Shown here: piece after piece, positions 52,881 through 64,000 of the stretch | Layout of the letters: each line of letters begins with the position of its first letter | Position numbering within the stretch: the first letter of the stretch is position 1 | Notes under the pieces: model-generated | Databases searched by the model: none | Told to the model about the DNA's origin: nothing | The model's input: the letters and a program-made list of their open reading frames with translations, nothing else | Translations under genes and position numbers: made by a program | From: Macrostomum lignano | Lineage: Eukaryota | Reading direction: 5' to 3' | Length of the DNA stretch: 64,000 nucleotides | NCBI GenBank assembly: GCA_002269645.1 | Contig: NIVC01000291.1 | Location: 310,001-374,000, forward strand

Positions 52881-55476
52881 ATGCCGGGCAAAGGCAAAGG
52901 CGGGAAGCGACGCAAAGGCGGCTCCACGCGGAGCGGCGGAGGCAAGGGCCGGCTCGGGAACATGACGGAGGAGGAGCGGATGATCTACCTGGAGCAGCAG
53001 CGGCTGGCCGAGGAGGAGTACCGCAAGCAGCGCGAGGACTTCCTGAGCGCGTATCTGCAAGTGAGCTGAGTTGTGCATGCGATATCCTATTGATTAGCTA
53101 GGTTAGACATCCCTGTAGTATTATTCTATTCCCTCCTGCACACACCTACCAGTACTCAGGTAAGAAAGGGGGTCCGTAGCCCAGCGGTAGCGCAGATGCT
53201 CTGGTGTGCCAGCGACCCAGGCTCGATTCCAAGTGCAGTCACATTAATTTGGGGCTGAATTGGAATCTCGGCTTGGCTCTGCTCGCGCAATTAACGGCCT
53301 TGAGAGCCAACCCCCCAAGGCGCAGTGAAGTGTACATGCCTAACGATAATATAAAGTTAGGGCCGCTGTACACTCCTGTGTGAGTGTGTGCCTGCGTACG
53401 TATCCGCACGCTTGTATGCCTGCTCAGGGGAGTCGGCGGAATGGGCAATAATGCCTCTCGCCGGTTGTGTGTTGATGTCCCTTAAAGTGCGCCAGGGTGC
53501 ACACAACCCCCTGCCTCTAATAAAAAAATAATAAATACTCAGGTAAGAAGCCAGTGAATCACACTATCTCTCACTGCAGGGAAAAATTACAAACGAGGAG
53601 AAATTCTCGAGGCTCAACCTGCACAAGCTGAACCACCAGTGGCGCAACATCATGCGCGAGGCGAAGTCTCGCGAACTGCGGAAGGACATCGAGATCCTCA
53701 GCCAGACTTTCGAGCGGGTCGTCGACCGCAAGGAGAGCGTCCTGCGGTCGCTGGCCCGCGACATTGAGGAGGCCGACGGCCAGATGAATCTGGCGGTGCG
53801 GGCGCACCTGCAGAACGTGGACCGCCTGGTGGACATCCAGGCTCAGCGGATGCACCGGCTTGGCGAGGAGTACCGAGCCGAGCTGGAGACGGTCCGCGAA
53901 GAGTTCGACTCCGAGGCCGCCTGGGTGGCGGAGCGGCACGCAGCGGAGATGAAGGACCTGCAGGACGTGATGTTCGGCATGAAGGAGAACTTCACCGAGA
54001 AGGAGGTTGACGCCAGGACCGAATTTCACAGCATGCGCGATGAAATCAAGAACCGGGTGGGTACCGGCAGATTTTGAGCTTGTAGACCTGTAGACCCCAG
54101 GAATTTGCAGTGCTCAGTATGCAAATCATTTGCACACACTATAAGAGATTCTCCCAGATTCAGCTGCATATTTCACCCGCTTTGAGTGTACCCTCGCTCT
54201 CAATGACTTTTTTGCCTTCCCAGAACAACGAGGAAAAGCACGCACTGCGCGTCCTGCTCGAGGTGAAAGTTGACGAGTATTGGCGCCAATTCAACGAGGC
54301 CAAGAAGGCCTACAACGAGGCCACCAGAGAGAAGAAGCTCAACTTCGAGAATCTGAAGGCGAAGGACGAGGCCTCAGCCAAGGAGATCGACCGGCAGATG
54401 CGCCGGCTGCAGAAGATTGGCGCGGAGATGAGTAGCCTGAAGCAGCGGATGGCGAGCAACAGCCGCCTGTACGAGGAGCGCAACCGGATGCTGAAGGAGG
54501 AGCGAGAGAAGATGGTGCTGCACTTCCAGCAGCTGAAGGCGCAGATGGCCCGCATCAAGGATCAGCAGCGGCAGCGGCTCACGAAGATGACGCTGGAGAG
54601 CAACGAGGCGCTCAAGGGACTGCGCGCGCAGAACGACAAGGCCGATCGGATTTTGAAGAGCGGTGAGTGAGAACTGGCAATGTTCATGCAGCTGCAGATA
54701 CAGCTTCCGATTGAAGATGGCCGTTCTGATAAAATTTTAAGTCCGGTTTTCTACTGGCATCCGAGCCCCATGGCTGTGGTGGGGCATCTGCCTCTTGTTG
54801 CACCTTGCCCTAAACAAGTGGTAACTTTCTGGCCCAGAACTGCGTTGGTAGATACGGCAAGTTTCGGAATTGCTTCTGCCTTTTTGGAGGCAGTTTAACA
54901 TGAAGCACATCGCACCGTCCGCAACCCCTCCCGCTCATACAGCCGAGATGTGCCGCCGCCTGGAGACGGAGGAGGAGAAGGTGCTGCCGTTCCCAGCGTC
55001 CTCCCTGACCCCGGAGGAGCAGGAGGACCTCAGCGCGGCTGTCCAGGAGGAGCCGCTGGAGCCGCTGGCCAGGGCGGCGAGCAAGTACCGGGGCCTGGAG
55101 GAGTTCTGGCGCCGCTACAACCGCGGCCTGCTGGACAAGCTGGCCCTGGAGAAGGAGCGCTCCGCCCTGCAGGTGGAGAACGGTCAGCTGCGCTCGCTGC
55201 TCAAACAGTACCTGGACGGCGTGTCCGTAAACGAGGAGGTTCTCGCGGCGGCGAACCCGCTGCTCGTCATCAACGGTCGGTCCAACACGGGCGGGTGAGT
55301 CGCCGCGGGCCTGCATTTTTTGCACACGTTTTCAGGTACTTTTGGCTGACATGCGCAATCAGACCGGCCAAATTTGCCTCTCCAGCCTGCAGCCGGCAGC
55401 AGCCGATCCGCGGGTCCGGGCCGCCCCCACGGTGACTGTGGAGGCCGGCAACGAAGTTCGGAACAGGAAGGCCTGA
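52881..55476 (+). CDS. CCDC65: Dynein regulatory complex subunit 2 (CCDC65/DRC2), 5 exons
   Basis: [62 protein letters not shown] and [17 protein letters not shown] parallel recalled CCDC65. Exons are 52881-53060, 53580-54056, 54224-54662, 54943-55294 and 55386-55476. AATAAA lies at about 55535. Confidence 0.93.
53167..53535 (+). mobile_element. Full-length tRNA-derived SINE (family A), long variant, in CCDC65 intron 1
   Basis: A and B boxes and an A-rich tail are present. A perfect 14-bp TSD tactcaggtaagaa lies at 53153-53166 and 53536-53549. A 53-bp segment (53240-53292) is absent from the 24432 copy. Confidence 0.92.
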
Positions 55477-56681
55477 CGGACCGCGGCAGCTGTTTAAAGT
55501 GCGACCTTGTGCAATGTTTTAACTATTACTGTGCAATAAATACTTCATGTTTTACTTAAAGTAAGCTTACAAAATATTTTTTTATTCAACACCGCAATTA
55601 CTCTTTGCTTATATTTGTGAGACACTTTTCATTTCTCAACAACTGAAACAGCTGTTAGCTGAGAAACTCGTTTTATCCTTTTATTCCTGCAAATACAAAA
55701 AATCAAGGCCAGCGGGAAAGGCTCGATTTCTTTACCGAGTTTAAAGCCAGCAAATTCGTGTAGATGTGCTGATTTGACGGCTCTTTTAACAGCACCGAAC
55801 CAGAGACAAGAGTCTCCTGACTACCTGGTGAGCCAAATTTGGTTTTTGATGAGGCTGGAGTCATACCTGGTGAGGTAGTATTTGATGAGGCAAGAGTCAC
55901 ACCTAGTGAGGTGGGGTGCTTGATAAGGCTACTCGTAAAGTCACACCTGGTGAGCCACGTGTAGTGTTTGATGAGGCGACTTCACACTGCACATGCAGAA
56001 AATGTCTACAATTTTCAGTTCACCTGACTATAAGACTCAGGAGAGAAAGAATGAAATGATCATTGAGTAATTTGAGTAATGTCTCATAGCTAAGCTTTTA
56101 ATCGGTATAGTGCCAGTGTTTTGAAGCTAGCATATTTGTCATAAACAATACCAGCAGGATTAAACTGGTCAGGCTAGCGTATTTGTCAAAAACAATACCA
56201 AGATTCAGCTGCCGTTATTTTTGTGAATTCATGCGCATAAATAGGAGCACAGCAGCAATTTTAAAACCAACGGATTTTCCAGCAGCCGGCTTCAGGCGGT
56301 TGAAAGCGTAGAACTCAGCGTGTAGAGCCAGAACCTTGGATCCTGCAGCACCGCTCAGCGTGCGACCCTGCCATGAGCTGGACAGGCTATCTGCGCACAG
56401 CGGCTTATCAGGGGCAGGCCGCGCTGCCCAGCCCTCCGCCCGTCACACCTTGCTCGAGGATTAGCTGGAGCAAGTCGCTCATAGGCGGCCCGCAAAAGTA
56501 CCAATTGAAGGAACACACAGAGCAGGTCGCAGAAACAGTTTTCCTAGCAAAACAAAACGCGGCACAATTGCTTTTGTTTTTCTCCAGAGGACCAAAATAT
56601 TTTCAACCACTTTATCCGCTTTAAAAGGCCGCATGGGGAGCGCCGGGCTAGTGAAATCAAGCTCAAGCTGCTTGATCAGCC

Positions 56682-57949
56682 ATGCGATTCAAGCAGCCAG
56701 TCATCATCATCACCGTTCTGTCCCTCGGCTGCGTGGCGGCCGTCACCTGGCTGCTGAGCAACATCCAGGGCCAGGCCTCGGTGCAAGTCATTCTAAAGCG
56801 CTTCCTGGTTCGGATGAACTCGTCCATGCTTCCTAGAGAAGTCGAGCGGCTGAAGACATTCACAAAATATTTGAAGTCGACGGAAGTGAGAAGGCTGGAC
56901 GGCGCCTTGCAGAATCAGAAGAAACAGCAGAGCGTCGACCAGCTGAGCGCTCTGCTGGCGGATCAGGCCAACCCGATCCCCGCGCACGCCAAGGCCTGTC
57001 CCGGCTACTGGGAGCTCCGGGACATCAACTTCCAGCACCCCGCACTCGCCCAGCGACTTTGCAAGAATCGGGCCGCCTACAAAATGGTTGACAACAATTG
57101 TTCCCACCGTGCGAGATCAGAGACGACCTGCCAAAGAAGCTTTTGCAGAAGCTGAACAAGACAGCGATGAGAACCTACATCAAAAGTGTCGTGACGAACA
57201 GGCCGGTAACCATTTACACCTACCCTGCTGGAGACATTGTGTCAGGCAGCATTATCACATCGCACGGCTGGGAAGGAGGCCAAGTGTCCCTGACTTTGTC
57301 GATCGCGAAAAAGTTCCCTCTGGGCTCCGTCACATTCATGGACATCGGCTGCAACATCGGTGTCTACTGCCTGCAGGCCAGGGACGCCGGCATCCCCACG
57401 GTGGCCGTGGACGCGAACCTCAGGAACCTGGTCAGAATTCGAATGTCCGCCAGTGACATGGGCTGGATGGCCGACTCGAAGCTGAAGCTGCTGTGGATGT
57501 TCTTCCACGCATCCGTGTCGCTGCAGTACCTCAACTTCGGCACCGGCTGGTGCAACGTAGGCGGAGCAACGTCAAACAGGGACAGCATGACGGACACGAT
57601 TCCAGTGATGACCGGCCAGGCCGATGACCTCTTGAGCAGCGTCCACACGGAGCTGGTGGTGATGAAGATTGACATCGAGACCAGCGAGAACATCTTCTTC
57701 TCCACTGGCGTGCGGCTGTTCAAAGAGAAGAAGATCGTCGCCGTGCAGATGGAGTTCTGGCGGCCCAACCCCGCGCAGCTCGCGTCGCTCTCGCCGAACT
57801 TCCGCAAGATTGTCGAGTTCTTCACCAAGCTGAACTACTCATTGTTCTCAATGAGCAACATCAGCCAGGTACTGAATCTGACCACCTTCCGCGACTGGGA
57901 CGGCATCTGGATCAGGAATGACTATCTGAGTACCGTTCGCGGTAAATGA
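56682..57949 (+). CDS. Type II membrane FkbM-like (Methyltransf_21-type) SAM-dependent methyltransferase, intronless, one -1 frameshift near 57098
   Basis: N-terminal TM (VIIITVLSLGCVAAVTWLL). The downstream frame has FMDIGCNIGVY (motif I), VAVDA and VMKIDIE. Frames 56682-57155 and 57098-57949 overlap; adding one T to aattg gives ..VDNN-LFPPCE... Confidence 0.78.
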
Positions 57950-58279
57950 TGAAATGAGCAGGCAGAACTCAATGCAAAAACTGAATCGACTGTCCCGAGA
58001 CCGCGCGAACATTCACAATTGGTATCTGGTGATTTTTTACAAGTTCATGCCTTTGTGTATATACTTGTCTCATTCAAACATTTTATGCTTTCATTTTCAT
58101 GCCCTGTACCGTAGTTCCATGGCATTGGTGAAATTGATGCTTTGCTATCAAACTCCACCAAAACAGCCAAACTCAAGCTAAGGCCGCTTTAGCAGGTGTC
58201 AACCCACCTCGCCTCTCATTGGCTGGCGCGCGCGCGCCACAGGCGCGTGGCGCCAAGCGCCATTCAGGCGCCCATGCCA

Positions 58280-58910
58280 CAGGCGCACCCTCCCGATATG
58301 TACACCCTCCCGATATGTACACCCTCCCGATATGTACACCCTCCCGATATGTACACCCTCCCGATATGTACACCCTCCCGATATGTACACCCTCCCGATA
58401 TGTACACCCTCCCGATATGTACACCCTCCCGATATGTACACCCTCCCGATATGTACACCCTCCCGATATGTACACCCTCCCGATATGTACACCCTCCCGA
58501 TATGTACACCCTCCCGATATGTATGCAGCAGGCGCACCCTCCCGACATGTATACCGCAGGCAACCCTCCCGACATGTACCTCGACATGTAAGTCGTAGGC
58601 GCCCCCCCCTCTCCCGAGCCAAAGGTACACTCTCCCGATATGAGTGTACACTCTCCCGATATGTGTACACTCTCCCGATATGGGTGTACACTCTCCCGAT
58701 ATGAGTGTACACTCTCCCGATATGTGTGTACACTCTCCCGATATGTGTGTACACTCTCCCGATATGGGTGTACACTCTCCCGATATGTGTGTACACTCTC
58801 CCGATATGAGTGTACACTCTCCCGATATGTGTGTACACTCTCCCGATATGTGTGTACACTCTCTCGATATGGGTGTACACTCTCCCGATATGTGTGTACA
58901 CCAATATGTA
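58280..58910. repeat. Composite array: 17-bp (accctcccgatatgtac)n, spacer, 19-21-bp (actctcccgatatgtgtgtac)n
   Basis: About 13 copies of the 17-mer and about 13 of the 21-mer. A homologous block in the same orientation lies at 61915-62190. Confidence 0.93.
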
Positions 58911-58932
58911 GACTGGGGCGGACCACACTAAG

Positions 58933-59522
58933 ATGGAGGTGAAGCTAACCGGAATCGAGCTGTATTTGGAAGTCATTGAGCCAAAGACTGCACTAAAAGC
59001 GGATTATCTCAAGGCAATAGAGAAGGACATTGATGTTGCATACACGGCCTACATGTGTCGAGATGAGCGAAACGAAACTAGAACAAACATCTGCATTAAA
59101 GAGGGATCATGAAGCAATCCAAGGTATATCATTATTAACATGAGAAACCCAAATAGCATTATACACTACATGCATGGAGACGTGCGGTCCATTCAGCATG
59201 AAATAAGTGATAATCTTACCCTGCACTGCCACAAAATGGAGATTTCAGTCAGAACAAGATTAGCAAATTTTATAGCGAGTTAGTCGACTTGGCTGTGAAA
59301 GAGAACAATGGAATTGCTATCACTGCTCTTCAATATGGAACTCTATATCCGATGTTTGGCGCTGATGTGTCTGCCAGACAAATGCCTACTGATAACAGCC
59401 CTGTGAATATCGTGACTAACATCGAGAGGACTGTCGCAACACCCGTGGACTTGTACATTATCTATGCATTTGAGAGGAAGGTGAAGCTTAACATGATCAA
59501 CAATTCATCCAGTAAAGTTTAA
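58933..59522 (+). pseudogene. C-terminal fragment of Polinton/adintovirus-like major capsid (hexon, double jelly roll), disrupted
   Basis: VKLTGIELYLEVIEP..KADYLKAIEKDIDVAYTAYMC, then an in-frame TGA at 59110-59112, then SNPRYIII, a frameshift near 59210, and YP..DFSQNKISKFYSEL..YGTLYPMFGADVS..SPVNI..LYIIYAFERKVKL. These match my recollection of adintovirus/Polinton MCP C-terminal motifs (not searched). Confidence 0.65.
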
Positions 59523-59544
59523 ATATTTTTTATGGGTGAAAAAA

Positions 59545-60402
59545 ATGGAAGCTATAGCCGAAAGACTAAACAACATTGTTTCACACTCCAAGGAGAGCAT
59601 TCCTATTACAATAACTGGGCGAATTAATGACTCAAACGGGATATTTGTTGACAAATTAGAGCAGGCGCTTCGCCTGGATCCAGGTGCTAATTACCATGTC
59701 TATCTTAACGACTTCACTGGTTGGTCAAACGTTCCCAATGTGATGGCAGCAAATAATAAGTTTTATTACAAATGGAAAGGTGCAGCAGCAGAACCTGTGG
59801 TATTCCCTGTGAGCACGCAAAGTGTGGATACCTACAATTATTTTCTAGAAAACGTCTTTACTAAAAGAGGCCATTTCGAGACACCTAATCCGATTAAGCC
59901 AGAACTGTTCCCTGTCAAACTAGCCTATGATCTCACTGAAATGAGAGTGGTCATGCAAGTTCACAAAGATGCGGAGGTTGAGTTTAAAGATGACACTTGG
60001 TATAGGGAATTAGGATTCGAGAAGAAAGTTTATAAGGCAGAATCCGCGGCGCGGACCACCACTGAAGCGTCGGGGGCCGTTAGCATGGCCCGGGAAAGTG
60101 TAAGCGGTTTGTTCTTAGCACCCAATATTGCAGACATTGTAAAGGGTTTGAATATTCTAATCAGAAGTAATCTCAGTCTTGATTGGGTATTTAAGGGAAA
60201 GCGAACGAATATTTTGTACAAAATCTCCAACTCTGTTGCTGGAGGACAGATGGTGGTAGAGAAACCAAATCCAGTGAAAAGAGTTGTATTGAGTAATAAG
60301 GAGATTCACGAGATTGTGCTACAGTTTGAGACTGAAGATGGGGTAGGTGTTGATTTCAACGGTGAAGAGTTTGTATTGACGTTGATCATTGAGAGAATGT
60401 AA
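59545..60402 (+). CDS. Polinton/adintovirus-like minor capsid protein (penton), uninterrupted 285-288 aa
   Basis: Intronless, AT-rich ORF with the typical penton motif order: LEQALRL..YHVYL..NVMAANNKFYY..ELGF..DIVKGLNILIRSNL..GKRTNILY..GQMVVEKP..IHEIVLQFETEDG..VDFNGEEFVLTLII. It lies directly downstream of the hexon-like fragment. Start is ATG 59545 or GTG 59536. Confidence 0.75.
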   Translation: MEAIAERLNNIVSHSKESIPITITGRINDSNGIFVDKLEQALRLDPGANYHVYLNDFTGWSNVPNVMAANNKFYYKWKGAAAEPVVFPVSTQSVDTYNYFLENVFTKRGHFETPNPIKPELFPVKLAYDLTEMRVVMQVHKDAEVEFKDDTWYRELGFEKKVYKAESAARTTTEASGAVSMARESVSGLFLAPNIADIVKGLNILIRSNLSLDWVFKGKRTNILYKISNSVAGGQMVVEKPNPVKRVVLSNKEIHEIVLQFETEDGVGVDFNGEEFVLTLIIERM

Positions 60403-60406
60403 GAAA

Positions 60407-60646
60407 TCACAATTGCTTAATGATTTCTGCAAAGTTATAGTAGCTGTCGTAATCTTTTACGTAGGTTACTCCATACTTAAGAAACCAGTGTCTTTGGAGA
60501 GCTAGATTAATATTAGGGACATTGATATCAACGCCGGGCCAATATTTTCTCATGTACTCGCTGCATTCTAGTTTGCATCGGTACTTACTCTTGTAATTAG
60601 GCTCGTGCGCTTTGTAATAAGAACCTGGAGAGACAACTGGAAACAT
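60407..60646 (-). CDS. Small orphan ORF (79 aa, Tyr/Lys-rich) convergent with the penton-like gene
   Basis: ATG is preceded by an A-rich context and the stop lies 4 bp from the penton stop. The tight packing resembles a viral genome. Confidence 0.45.
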   Translation of the reverse strand: MFPVVSPGSYYKAHEPNYKSKYRCKLECSEYMRKYWPGVDINVPNINLALQRHWFLKYGVTYVKDYDSYYNFAEIIKQL

Positions 60647-61914
60647 TTTTATTGAGAATTTAATTTTTTCAAAGGGTAAGGACCCTGTGCTGATGATTTA
60701 AAGTCTTAGGGATCTGGTTTCGCGTTGCGAATTGAATGTGGGGAGAAGAATGCAGATTCTTTTCTGATTGTTTCGAAGATGTTATGGGTGGATGTCAGTG
60801 GATTATGTAGGACACCTGTTATGCTCTGATTCTGTCGGGGATAATATGGATGGATTTAATGGGATTATGGAGGACGTTAAAAATTTTGTCCCAGAAGCCC
60901 CCTCATGCATTCTACTGCTGTGTGTACGCATCCTCATCATCCCATAAGCCCACGCTCCCTGATCCAGACTCACTCTTCCAAACCCTCCTGTATTGCCGTG
61001 TGTAAGGAAAATATAGTGTAAAAATACAGATGTTAACCGTTAGACCGCTGAAATCAGGGCACACTAGAGAGGGGTTTCGGGGGGTCTGCATGCTCTATGT
61101 AAGCTGCTTGAGGAGGTTCCAGGGGTGTTGGGAGGGTTTCCATTATGTTTTGAAAAAAACTAGGGGCTTAAATACAACGTTTTATTCAAAAAGTAGGTTA
61201 TTTTAATGAAATAGCTAACACAATCATTGTCGAGAGTAGAAATTTTATAAGAAACCAGGTGAATAAAAGTCAGACATTTTCAATTATAAACGGCAAGTAT
61301 TTTAATAGAAAAGTAAGCAAACAAGGCACAAAACCAGCAAATTTTACCTTTTTTATTTTAATGTTACTGATAAGGTAGAGAGTAGAAACTTGTGAGCTGT
61401 ACGGAGTTAGAAAGTATTAACCAATATGTATCGTATGAATTATTAGTTCAGTACCAGCCATTGGTCATGCGAGCATTTATTAAGTTATTACGAGTGATGA
61501 AGGGATAGAGAGCTATATACAGGAAGACAGTATCCTTCTAAACCACCACGAACAGATTGCTAATAGAGATAAGCTTTGTTTGTGTGCAGTATGAGTAAGC
61601 GAAGGCGGGGCAAATACTTTTCCACATGCCAGACAGACAGTATTGTGCTAGGATTTCTCTCGAAATCTCGATAGGTTATTAGTTTTTATCACACCATCCA
61701 GATGCGCCAACTAGTCAGCAGTAGTCATTTATATGTTATTAGACCTTACAAACCCAGGTCAGGTAAATATTACAAAGAGTATATTACGTACACACGCCAA
61801 CCCCGAATACCAAGCCATACTAGTCTACTTGCAGTGCTCCCGGAGGGAAGGGATGGTCAGGAGTTACACACCAAGAATGCATTCACAAAAAGAGTACACC
61901 ACTCGAGCCCCGTC

Positions 61915-62190
61915 CAGGCGCCCCGATATGTATGATGCAGGCAACCCTCCCGACATGTATGCCGCAGGCGACCCACCCGACATGTACCCCGACATGTACA
62001 CCCTACCATATGGCGCGCGAGCCACAGGTGCCAAGCGCCGTCCGGGCCCCCCAAAATGGATGCCGCAGGCGCCCTCCCGAGCCGATGGTACACTCTCCTG
62101 ATATAAGTGTACACTCTCCCAATATGAGTGTACACTCTCCCGATATGAGTGTACACTCTCCCGATATGTTTGTACACCCATATGTAGTCA
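61915..62190. repeat. Shorter, diverged direct copy of the 58280-58910 composite array
   Basis: It shares gcaggcaaccctcccgacatgta, ctcccgagcc..ggtacactctcc and (actctcccgatatgagtgtac)n in the same order and orientation, and ends in the same atatgtag. Confidence 0.88.
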
Positions 62191-63367
62191 ACGATACGTA
62201 TTAACACAAAATTAGGCTAGTGAAAACTACTTATAGTAGGTGAAATTGCGTATATTTACATAAAAAAGTAGGCAAAACACATATTAAACATATCAGTAGG
62301 TGTAAATATCGGTGCATAATGCATATTACGAAACATATAGGTGTACGGACATATAGAATTAAGCATATGGGCAGCAAAAAACACACAATGTAGGTGCATT
62401 TTATCGATATATTGGCAGAAAAGTAGGTGAAATAGACAAAATAGTAGGTATAATATACAGCGTCTACTTATTAGTAGTAGGCGCTTGTAGATGCTAGTAT
62501 AATGCAGTGATGTAACCACGCTCTGGTCGCGGGATAGGGCATGGGAACTTTTTCGAAAGTGCCTCCTATCCCGTGCACCCTCTGCACAGAGCTGTCGAGA
62601 CTCGGCCAGGTCTCCGACCGGGCCTGGAGACTCCCGCTCTGCTGCGCCCCTCCTGCTGCCTTGGTCCCGTCTCTCCTGCCGCCACACCTGCCTTTCCGGA
62701 GCCCCCTACCCCTTTTTGTACCTCCCCCTCTACCCTATCTCTTCCGTTTCCGCCCCATTCTTCCTGTACTTTCTCTATCTCCTCTCTTTTTTTTGTCTCC
62801 CTCTGCACTCTTTTCCTGCGCTGTCCCCTCCTTCTCTGTGTCTACTTACAGTATTTTGTGTGCTCACCGTCTCCCCATCCCCTCCCAAACTCCCAAACGG
62901 TGACGCAAGTCGTGTGACCCCTTCTTCCCCCCGATGACTCATCGATGACTCATCCCTCTCTCTTGCGCAACCTTTTCTCACGCCATTGTTCTCCTCCCCA
63001 AATTTCTCATGCGACACCCACCCCACCTCCGCTTCTATTGTTCTCGTTTTTGCTTCTTTTGTTCTCTCGACCCCCACCAATTATCACATTTTCTCCGATT
63101 TTCTCTTTCTTTTGTTCTCGTTTTCGCACCTAATTATCACCTTTTCTCCAATGTTTACTTTTCCATTGTTCTCAGTTTTCCCCAATTATCCCCGATTTCC
63201 AATTCCTTTGTTCTCGACCCCAGCCCTATTGTTCTCAATGTTTGCTTGCGCAACACTTTCGCGACCACCCGCTGCGCCAATTATCCCCCACCCCACCTCC
63301 GGATTGCGCAATTTCCCGATTTCTCATGTTGCTATGCCGGTCTCATGCTTCTCATCATGACTCATTC

Positions 63368-63449
63368 TGACGTCATTCTGCCGGCAGCCAATCAGAGAGA
63401 GGGAGCCATGGTAACGACCTTGAGGAGGCGGCTGTGAGGTCTATAAAAG
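63368..63449 (+). promoter_or_regulatory. Candidate Pol II core promoter: CRE (TGACGTCA), CCAAT and TATA (TATAAAAG)
   Basis: TGACGTCA at 63368-63375, CCAAT at 63388-63392 and TATAAAAG at 63442-63449. A consensus donor CCG|GTAAGT at 63769/63770 suggests a first exon whose gene continues beyond the window. Confidence 0.5.
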
Positions 63450-64000
63450 GAAGCGATTTCGGCATGAGAATCCTCAACTCTTCCTCTCCTCGTCCTTCTT
63501 TGGACTTGCTGTCAGATTGAGTTCTGACCCATTCGTCTATAAGACGAATCCCTGCCGGTCCGCGGTCTGTTACCGCCAAGTTATCCTTAGCTCCCCAAGT
63601 GAGCTCGCCTATCGGCCAGCGGTCTGATACCGCCCAGCATCATCAGCATCGCCTGATCTACATCAGCGCCTCGTCGCTCCAGCGCATCGCCGCTTCACCG
63701 TCTGCCTGACTGCAGCCTACAGCCGCCCTCGGTCACTCCGCCTCTCTCTCTCTCTCTGTGCAGCTGCCGGTAAGTTCCTGTTACTAATTTGTGCTCTAAT
63801 TGCCTTTGCTTATCCGGGGTTTGCCTATTTTCCTTTGTCTGATTAGAGAGCTGAGCCAATTGTGATACCGTATCTTTTGCTGTATTTTACTCAATAGTGA
63901 AGCCGCCTGATTGCCTGATTATTCGCCTAAGGGCCTAATTATTAACTATTAACTAACTTCATCATTATTCAATCTTTCACCATCATTTCACTCATGGCTT

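Follow-up and report, generated by a model that had tools for sequence, protein, structure and literature searches.

The 64,000-nucleotide window analysed here (Macrostomum lignano, contig NIVC01000291.1, positions 310,001–374,000; coordinates without a prefix refer to the window) contains a short block of capsid-like ORFs that the preliminary description interpreted as a Polinton/adintovirus-like module, a hexon fragment followed by a penton, left behind by a divergent virus lineage. Is this block the lone trace of such a virus or a piece of something larger, and is any part of it still maintained? The answer that best fits the data, to which we assign a probability of roughly 93%, is that the plus-strand segment 58907–60916 is a likely dead right-hand remnant of a high-copy Polinton/Maverick family, consisting of a broken major capsid gene, an open predicted penton gene and a complete terminal repeat. 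The similarity to Polinton copies spans the entire 2.0 kb from 58907 to 60916, with 93–96% DNA identity to the right end of 15–16 kb copies on other contigs. The block is thus wider than the 58933–60402 interval delineated originally, which overlooked a terminal repeat of about 510 bp. The copy is likely to be dead because some 13 kb on its left are lost, its capsid gene is broken and it is located inside another repeat; furthermore, it cannot copy itself because, as was already noticed from the sequence, polymerase, integrase, ATPase and protease are all missing.

The first of the two genes (58907–59522, plus strand) is the 3' half of a hexon-type major capsid gene, as judged by a tblastn comparison with a natural unbroken copy of 428 amino acids, to which it aligns over residues 226–428. 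The ATG at 58933, where the preliminary description has the block begin, encodes an internal methionine and is not a start. Two frames are needed to read the piece, which contains a premature stop (59110–59112) and a one-base frameshift (near 59215); compared with four other copies, its DNA is 97% identical, the alignment having a single gap. Fold and domain tests were run on the natural unbroken copy, which is encoded elsewhere in the same genome. This protein matches the double-jelly-roll family PF21738 below the cut-off (E = 3.1e-05); the same domain is carried by all nine of its database relatives. Although the structural model is weak (pLDDT 55), Foldseek retrieves the iridovirus major capsid protein (E = 7.5e-10) and VIA the faustovirus one (Z = 16.3, rmsd 5.0, 325 residues aligned); the top structural matches comprise the iridovirus, PBCV-1, Sputnik, mavirus, faustovirus and PRD1 capsids, and each of the 15 best VIA rows is a viral capsid or scaffold protein of the double-jelly-roll (DJR) type. 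The window piece is accordingly predicted, from these models, to encode the C-terminal half of a double-jelly-roll major capsid protein. Sequence searches of the PDB returned nothing useful for the window capsid pieces, Pfam gave no capsid match for the three of them, and a scan of the major capsid alignment over viral and metagenome contigs yielded no confirmed relative.

The second gene (59545–60402, plus strand) begins 22 bases after the capsid stop and is an open frame of 285 codons; both ORFs lie where initially reported, on the plus strand, and show no sign of introns. Its model, built from an 18-sequence alignment, is of better quality (pLDDT 79) and hits in Foldseek the mavirus penton (E = 4.3e-09), followed by adenovirus penton bases and the Sputnik minor capsid protein. 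In VIA, the mavirus penton is aligned over 234 residues (Z = 12.5, rmsd 10.8) and a PBCV-1 capsid chain over 129 (Z = 12.6, rmsd 3.2). Thus, by structure prediction, this ORF folds like the pentons of mavirus, Sputnik and adenovirus and is a predicted single-jelly-roll (SJR) minor capsid protein. Sequence searches with the penton against Pfam and the PDB gave no match; a profile search recovered 3122 relatives at E ≤ 0.001, and a penton-type Pfam family is absent from the 20 distant relatives inspected. The structural check proposed for the original assignment came out in its favour, for the window penton and for the unbroken natural copy of the major capsid protein, and, together with the copies of the family, supports the order hexon-type then penton-type in a Polinton/adintovirus-like element integrated in the host genome.

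The segment ends with the right terminal inverted repeat (60409–60916, plus strand), whose last base is present (ending CTACT). This repeat was compared with five two-ended copies and matches, in reverse orientation, the left end of each; over its last 92 bases the identity is 95–99% in four of these, and the fifth matches at 74% over 180 bases. The end motif is the same as in copies with target duplications.

The flanks on both sides are not Polinton. On the left (58195–58906) stand tandem arrays of 17-bp and 21-bp units, with an inverted partner about 7.5 kb away, outside the window; arrays related to these stand at the ends of copies of a foldback-type repeat, and the stretch is likely the end region of such a separate repeat. 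On the right (60918–62504) lies an arm of the same foldback-type repeat, which is high-copy, with 47 matches among 698 candidates, many of them inverted pairs. The immediate neighbours are therefore other repeats rather than the host genes suggested by the phrase ‘animal gene neighbourhood’. The abrupt switch to AT-rich sequence holds on the left only, where the GC content drops from 0.55–0.57 just upstream to 0.42 in the capsid block (0.51 for the window), because the right-hand repeat arm has a GC content of 0.415 as well.

Some features of these surroundings deserve mention in their own right. The foldback-type repeat is separate from the Polinton, occupies 58195–64000 of the window and continues to about C291:375776 (other copies are at L066–L072). 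Its arms are 3.7–4.4 kb long, 99.9% alike in two other copies and 98.7% in a third; the 17-bp and 21-bp arrays stand close to its ends, and it lacks a clear long ORF. One arm carries a 2.2-kb insert (62508–64000, ending at C291:374716), likely a solo LTR: its ends are TG...CA, its terminal inverted repeats measure 10 bp, and it shows a duplication of 4 bp. Further upstream, a spliced gene (53547–55298) encodes NYD-SP28 (E = 5.5e-23) and NYD-SP28_assoc (E = 3.9e-09) domains; we take it to be of the ciliary dynein-regulatory-complex type. At 56676–57949, overlapping ORFs of 159 and 285 amino acids match FkbM-type methyltransferases weakly (E = 0.08–0.09) and include a likely membrane anchor; they are read as one gene that a frameshift or a short intron divides. 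Minisatellites are very densely arrayed in the first 50,000 nucleotides (1–50000); for the window as a whole, the arrays make up 80 rows, with periods of 3–346.

The window copy belongs to an abundant family. The penton has 136 scored matches among 614 candidates in its own genome, the integrase 117 among 1593, and a 13-base terminal motif 365 exact matches compared with 22 for a control, all these numbers being lower bounds rather than copy numbers. The other 135 pentons are 92–95% identical to that in the window and are found at E ≤ 4e-171, so the capsid block is not a chance assemblage. Beyond the window, 39 loci were examined, 30 by going down the ranked penton list where the flanks allowed and 9 fetched earlier, three of the latter chosen for paired matches. 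Both ends are seen in 20 of the 39, and of these 20 copies, 15 are flanked by a perfect 6-bp target duplication, one by a duplication with a single mismatch and four by none. The standard layout is found in 14 of the 20, with a length of 14.8–16.6 kb and one copy of 22.6 kb with insertions. It starts with the terminal repeat, followed by PLA2, integrase (undetected in one copy), a protein-X-like gene, polymerase and protease; then, on the other strand, come two genes of unknown function, the ATPase and two further unknown genes, and finally the major capsid gene, the penton gene and the terminal repeat. The linked copies score above the Pfam cut-offs for DNA_pol_B_2 (PF03175, E = 1.9e-15), rve integrase (PF00665, E = 1.6e-09), the packaging ATPase Pox_A32 (PF04665, E = 2.9e-06), the adenain-type protease Peptidase_C5 (PF00770, E = 9.9e-05), PLA2 (E = 5.2e-14) and Adeno_PX (E = 4.7e-07). 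Hence the genome search for full-length copies recovered, in other copies of the same genome, the four genes missing here. Terminal inverted repeats are present in all 18 two-ended copies compared and measure about 0.25–0.9 kb in normal copies.

The idea of a lone footprint of a divergent lineage accordingly gives way to one truncated copy of a high-copy Polinton family with standard architecture; ‘undescribed’ may be true at the level of the family, whose best capsid relatives (77% and 64% identity) are unnamed. Some copies carry near the left end an extra ORF of 226 amino acids with no Pfam match (L098:3118-3795 (C716) and C142), and the ATPase region comes in divergent types, which may point to subfamilies or recombination. 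Beside another copy lie genes for a Frizzled receptor with an Fz domain and a polycystin channel (L034:4917-6581, L031:8583-9875), which agree with an animal host, as do the named relatives of the polymerase.

Most copies of the family are broken somewhere, and part of these breaks may be assembly errors. The middle piece of the polymerase is full length in one frame in only 5 of 27 loci; the major capsid gene was found in 53 of 54 loci, 37 of which have it at full length in a single frame and 34 free of stops. Nevertheless, the mean pairwise dN/dS is 0.12 for the major capsid gene (32 unique copies), 0.20 for the penton gene (43) and 0.14 for the integrase gene (12), pairwise values that are non-independent and come from copies drawn from the best-scoring penton matches, so that the sample is biased toward open frames and low dN/dS. 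The ATPase was dropped from this analysis (dS undefined), and the polymerase piece left 3 usable copies only. In the major capsid gene, the ratio is 0.08 for variants shared between copies compared with 0.37 for single-copy variants (p = 2e-05), whereas the corresponding difference in the penton gene is non-significant (p = 0.13). By these substitution patterns, the capsid genes of the family are under purifying selection, and the contrast between shared and single-copy variants fits selection during spread and drift after insertion. In the available part of PMC8097293, purifying selection on capsid genes is taken as evidence of particles; from the genes of this family and the selection on them, which are what was read here, we infer particles in the same manner.

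Could the open penton nevertheless be kept by the host or by the foldback repeat, through domestication or as composite-element cargo, serving for instance as a dominant-negative capsid protein or as a source of small RNAs directed at the family? Its frame is open next to a broken capsid gene, and the remnant lies inside another repeat with paired ends. However, an open penton is the norm in the family, with 49 of the 54 loci stop-free, and the private changes of the window penton are 7 non-synonymous to 1 synonymous, compared with 30 to 47 among family-shared changes (Fisher p = 0.019, a small count), as expected from drift. Moreover, the composite of foldback repeat and remnant has not spread because the sequence patterns at both junctions (58906/58907 and 60916/60917) are each matched once in the genome, for which reason the composite-transposon idea was rejected. 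Active retention of this copy therefore appears very improbable.

There is a similarly slim chance that the remnant is not there at all, that is, that a similar Polinton end was joined by misassembly to a repeat-rich spot or that a contaminant virus was included in the assembly. Many family copies are located at contig ends, so the assembler evidently struggles with this family, and short-read contigs from four runs include none that bridges the window junctions among the matches listed. Against this, the remnant ends on the right precisely at the terminal base and is joined on the left through short shared bases, as in a true insertion followed by a deletion; the window penton differs by 3.4% from its closest sampled copy. 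A contaminant was rejected on the grounds that all 20 public runs with the stretch come from one organism in seven studies and that the family is integrated with the target duplications described above. Among the runs listed as holding the stretch, none is an RNA run; family sequence is present as contigs in two runs with a guessed RNA label, which is uninformative on expression, strand or locus.

A single endogenisation of a jelly-roll virus other than a Polinton (a Polinton-like virus, virophage or adenovirus) is scarcely credible: the best solved-structure matches are indeed virophage and adenovirus pentons, but the full-length copies already largely refute the idea, with a linked protein-primed polymerase and rve integrase, the pair that defines Polintons, and with named polymerase relatives that are animal sequences and an adintovirus PolB.

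For the dead Polinton remnant, a simple sequence of insertion, deletion and decay can be proposed. An element of 15–16 kb would have used its retroviral-type integrase to insert into a foldback-type repeat arm: the Polinton's right end abuts this arm exactly, and three empty-site copies continue through this point without a Polinton. The insertion presumably generated a 6-bp duplication, as known from other copies (the window copy has no left end). A later deletion, to judge from the empty-site comparison, would have removed about 13 kb of the element along with some 1.3 kb of the arm, so that the 21-bp array of the arm came to adjoin mid-gene capsid sequence, with a few bases shared at the join. 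The parent family itself likely spread through protein-primed replication, packaging into putative jelly-roll capsids and re-integration. The remnant alone is of little weight; the parent family weighs more, and a host with far more than 100 young copies, many open capsid frames, purifying selection on both capsid genes and data from at least seven studies is a good system in which to seek particles and free linear DNA.

At four insertion sites, on five contigs, the capsid arm with its terminal repeat is present, inverted, at both ends of the element. These mirror copies (C633:134497-147606, C1584:127375-135893, C2140:107247-122715, and C1652:28604-39932 together with C276 (L143–L144)) have arms of 1.8–6.2 kb, which here constitute the terminal repeat and are 99.3–99.9% alike; none has an integrase, at most a scrap of polymerase is left, and each is flanked by a perfect 6-bp target duplication. 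Three of them were picked for paired matches; C1652 and C276, which arose in the 30-locus sample, represent a single site assembled on two contigs, the middle being inverted with respect to the flanks.

A tentative and rather doubtful interpretation is that the family is a still-active, particle-making animal polintovirus and that the mirror copies are copy-back defective genomes, produced by strand-displacement replication and integrated by the integrase of a helper. Several observations argue against it. The breakpoints differ from site to site, and the unrelated foldback repeat has equally well matched arms. In the C2140 copy, the same retroelement of about 4.4 kb, with reverse transcriptase and tyrosine-recombinase matches (presumably DIRS-like), is found near the penton in both arms (L083:6123-10000), which suggests that copying or homogenisation of the arms took place in the chromosome once this retroelement had inserted. 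Finally, there is a precedent in the Galileo/Foldback-type elements of Drosophila, where, according to the portion of PMC3573991 at hand, internal sequence of one end is copied in inverted orientation to the other end, lengthening the terminal repeat of non-autonomous copies. The precedent is partial: Galileo is a P-superfamily transposon and the reported gain is hundreds of bases, compared with up to 6.2 kb here, where a second capsid arm replaces the replication arm. Chromosomal conversion is the more likely origin of the mirror copies, and an assembly artefact is a possible one. No report of mirror or copy-back Polintons was found among the literature listings searched, which does not prove that there is none. 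If copy-back were true, these loci would be a genomic record of the defective particles of a Maverick. The mirror copies indicate that the terminal repeat of a Polinton can expand until it takes in an entire arm. Repeats of this kind could be missed or truncated in a survey restricting repeat length to 2.5 kb, as in PMC11131425.

How does the family compare with known systems? With the mavirus and Sputnik capsid proteins and the adenovirus penton base, it has in common the predicted folds: these proteins give the best structural matches to the penton and some of the best to the major capsid protein, at a sequence identity of about 10% that reflects a shared fold rather than family membership. 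From Polinton-like viruses, the family differs in combining a protein-primed polymerase with an rve integrase, the pair that, as summarised in excerpts of PMC5499653, defines Polintons and is missing from most Polinton-like viruses.

A further comparison is with the Alpha adintoviruses. Among 5814 polymerase relatives at E ≤ 1e-30 (of 8000 scored), the nearest virus-named match is the PolB of a Corynactis coral adintovirus (39%, E = 5.4e-106), which is included in the Alpha panel of PMC8502044 (Fig. S2, within the part of that article available); several of the named host genera of the polymerase relatives are also represented in this panel, with an identity of only 39–47%. The family shares PLA2 and protein-X-like domains with the Alpha virion module outlined there; unlike in the Alpha PLA2X fusion, each domain has an ORF of its own in the copies read, the two lying on opposite strands and flanking the integrase. 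A 519-residue N-terminal polymerase piece aligns to the N-terminal part of the Corynactis PolB at 28%, gives no Pfam match, to an OTU domain or otherwise, and has unnamed Atlas matches; among the 9 major capsid and 17 penton relatives, there is no named adintovirus capsid. Because PLA2 and protein X are separate and OTU is undetected, the family is best regarded, by gene content, as Alpha-adintovirus-like rather than placed as a member of that group.

The full correspondence is with the animal Polintons or Mavericks, for which a capsid and a penton have been described (PMC4028283, in the section seen). The window copy differs in being a 2-kb end only. The family shares with them the protein-primed PolB, rve integrase, A32/FtsK-type ATPase, adenain-type protease, DJR capsid and SJR penton, the length of 15–16.5 kb, inverted repeats at the termini and target duplications of 6 bp, as well as, going by excerpts of PMC4028283 and PMC8097293, the predominance of broken copies and purifying selection on the capsid genes. 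The portion of PMC8097293 consulted describes vertebrate copies as mostly degraded and animal Maverick particles as unobserved at the time of that paper. With at least 136 pentons, the family far exceeds the median copy number of eight given there for vertebrates and lies within the range of corals, which carry hundreds to thousands of Polintons by the account in part of PMC11131425; an excerpt of a recent preprint likewise mentions many such regions in invertebrate assemblies (bioRxiv 10.1101/2025.04.19.649669). All the Polinton features that were tested are found in the family.
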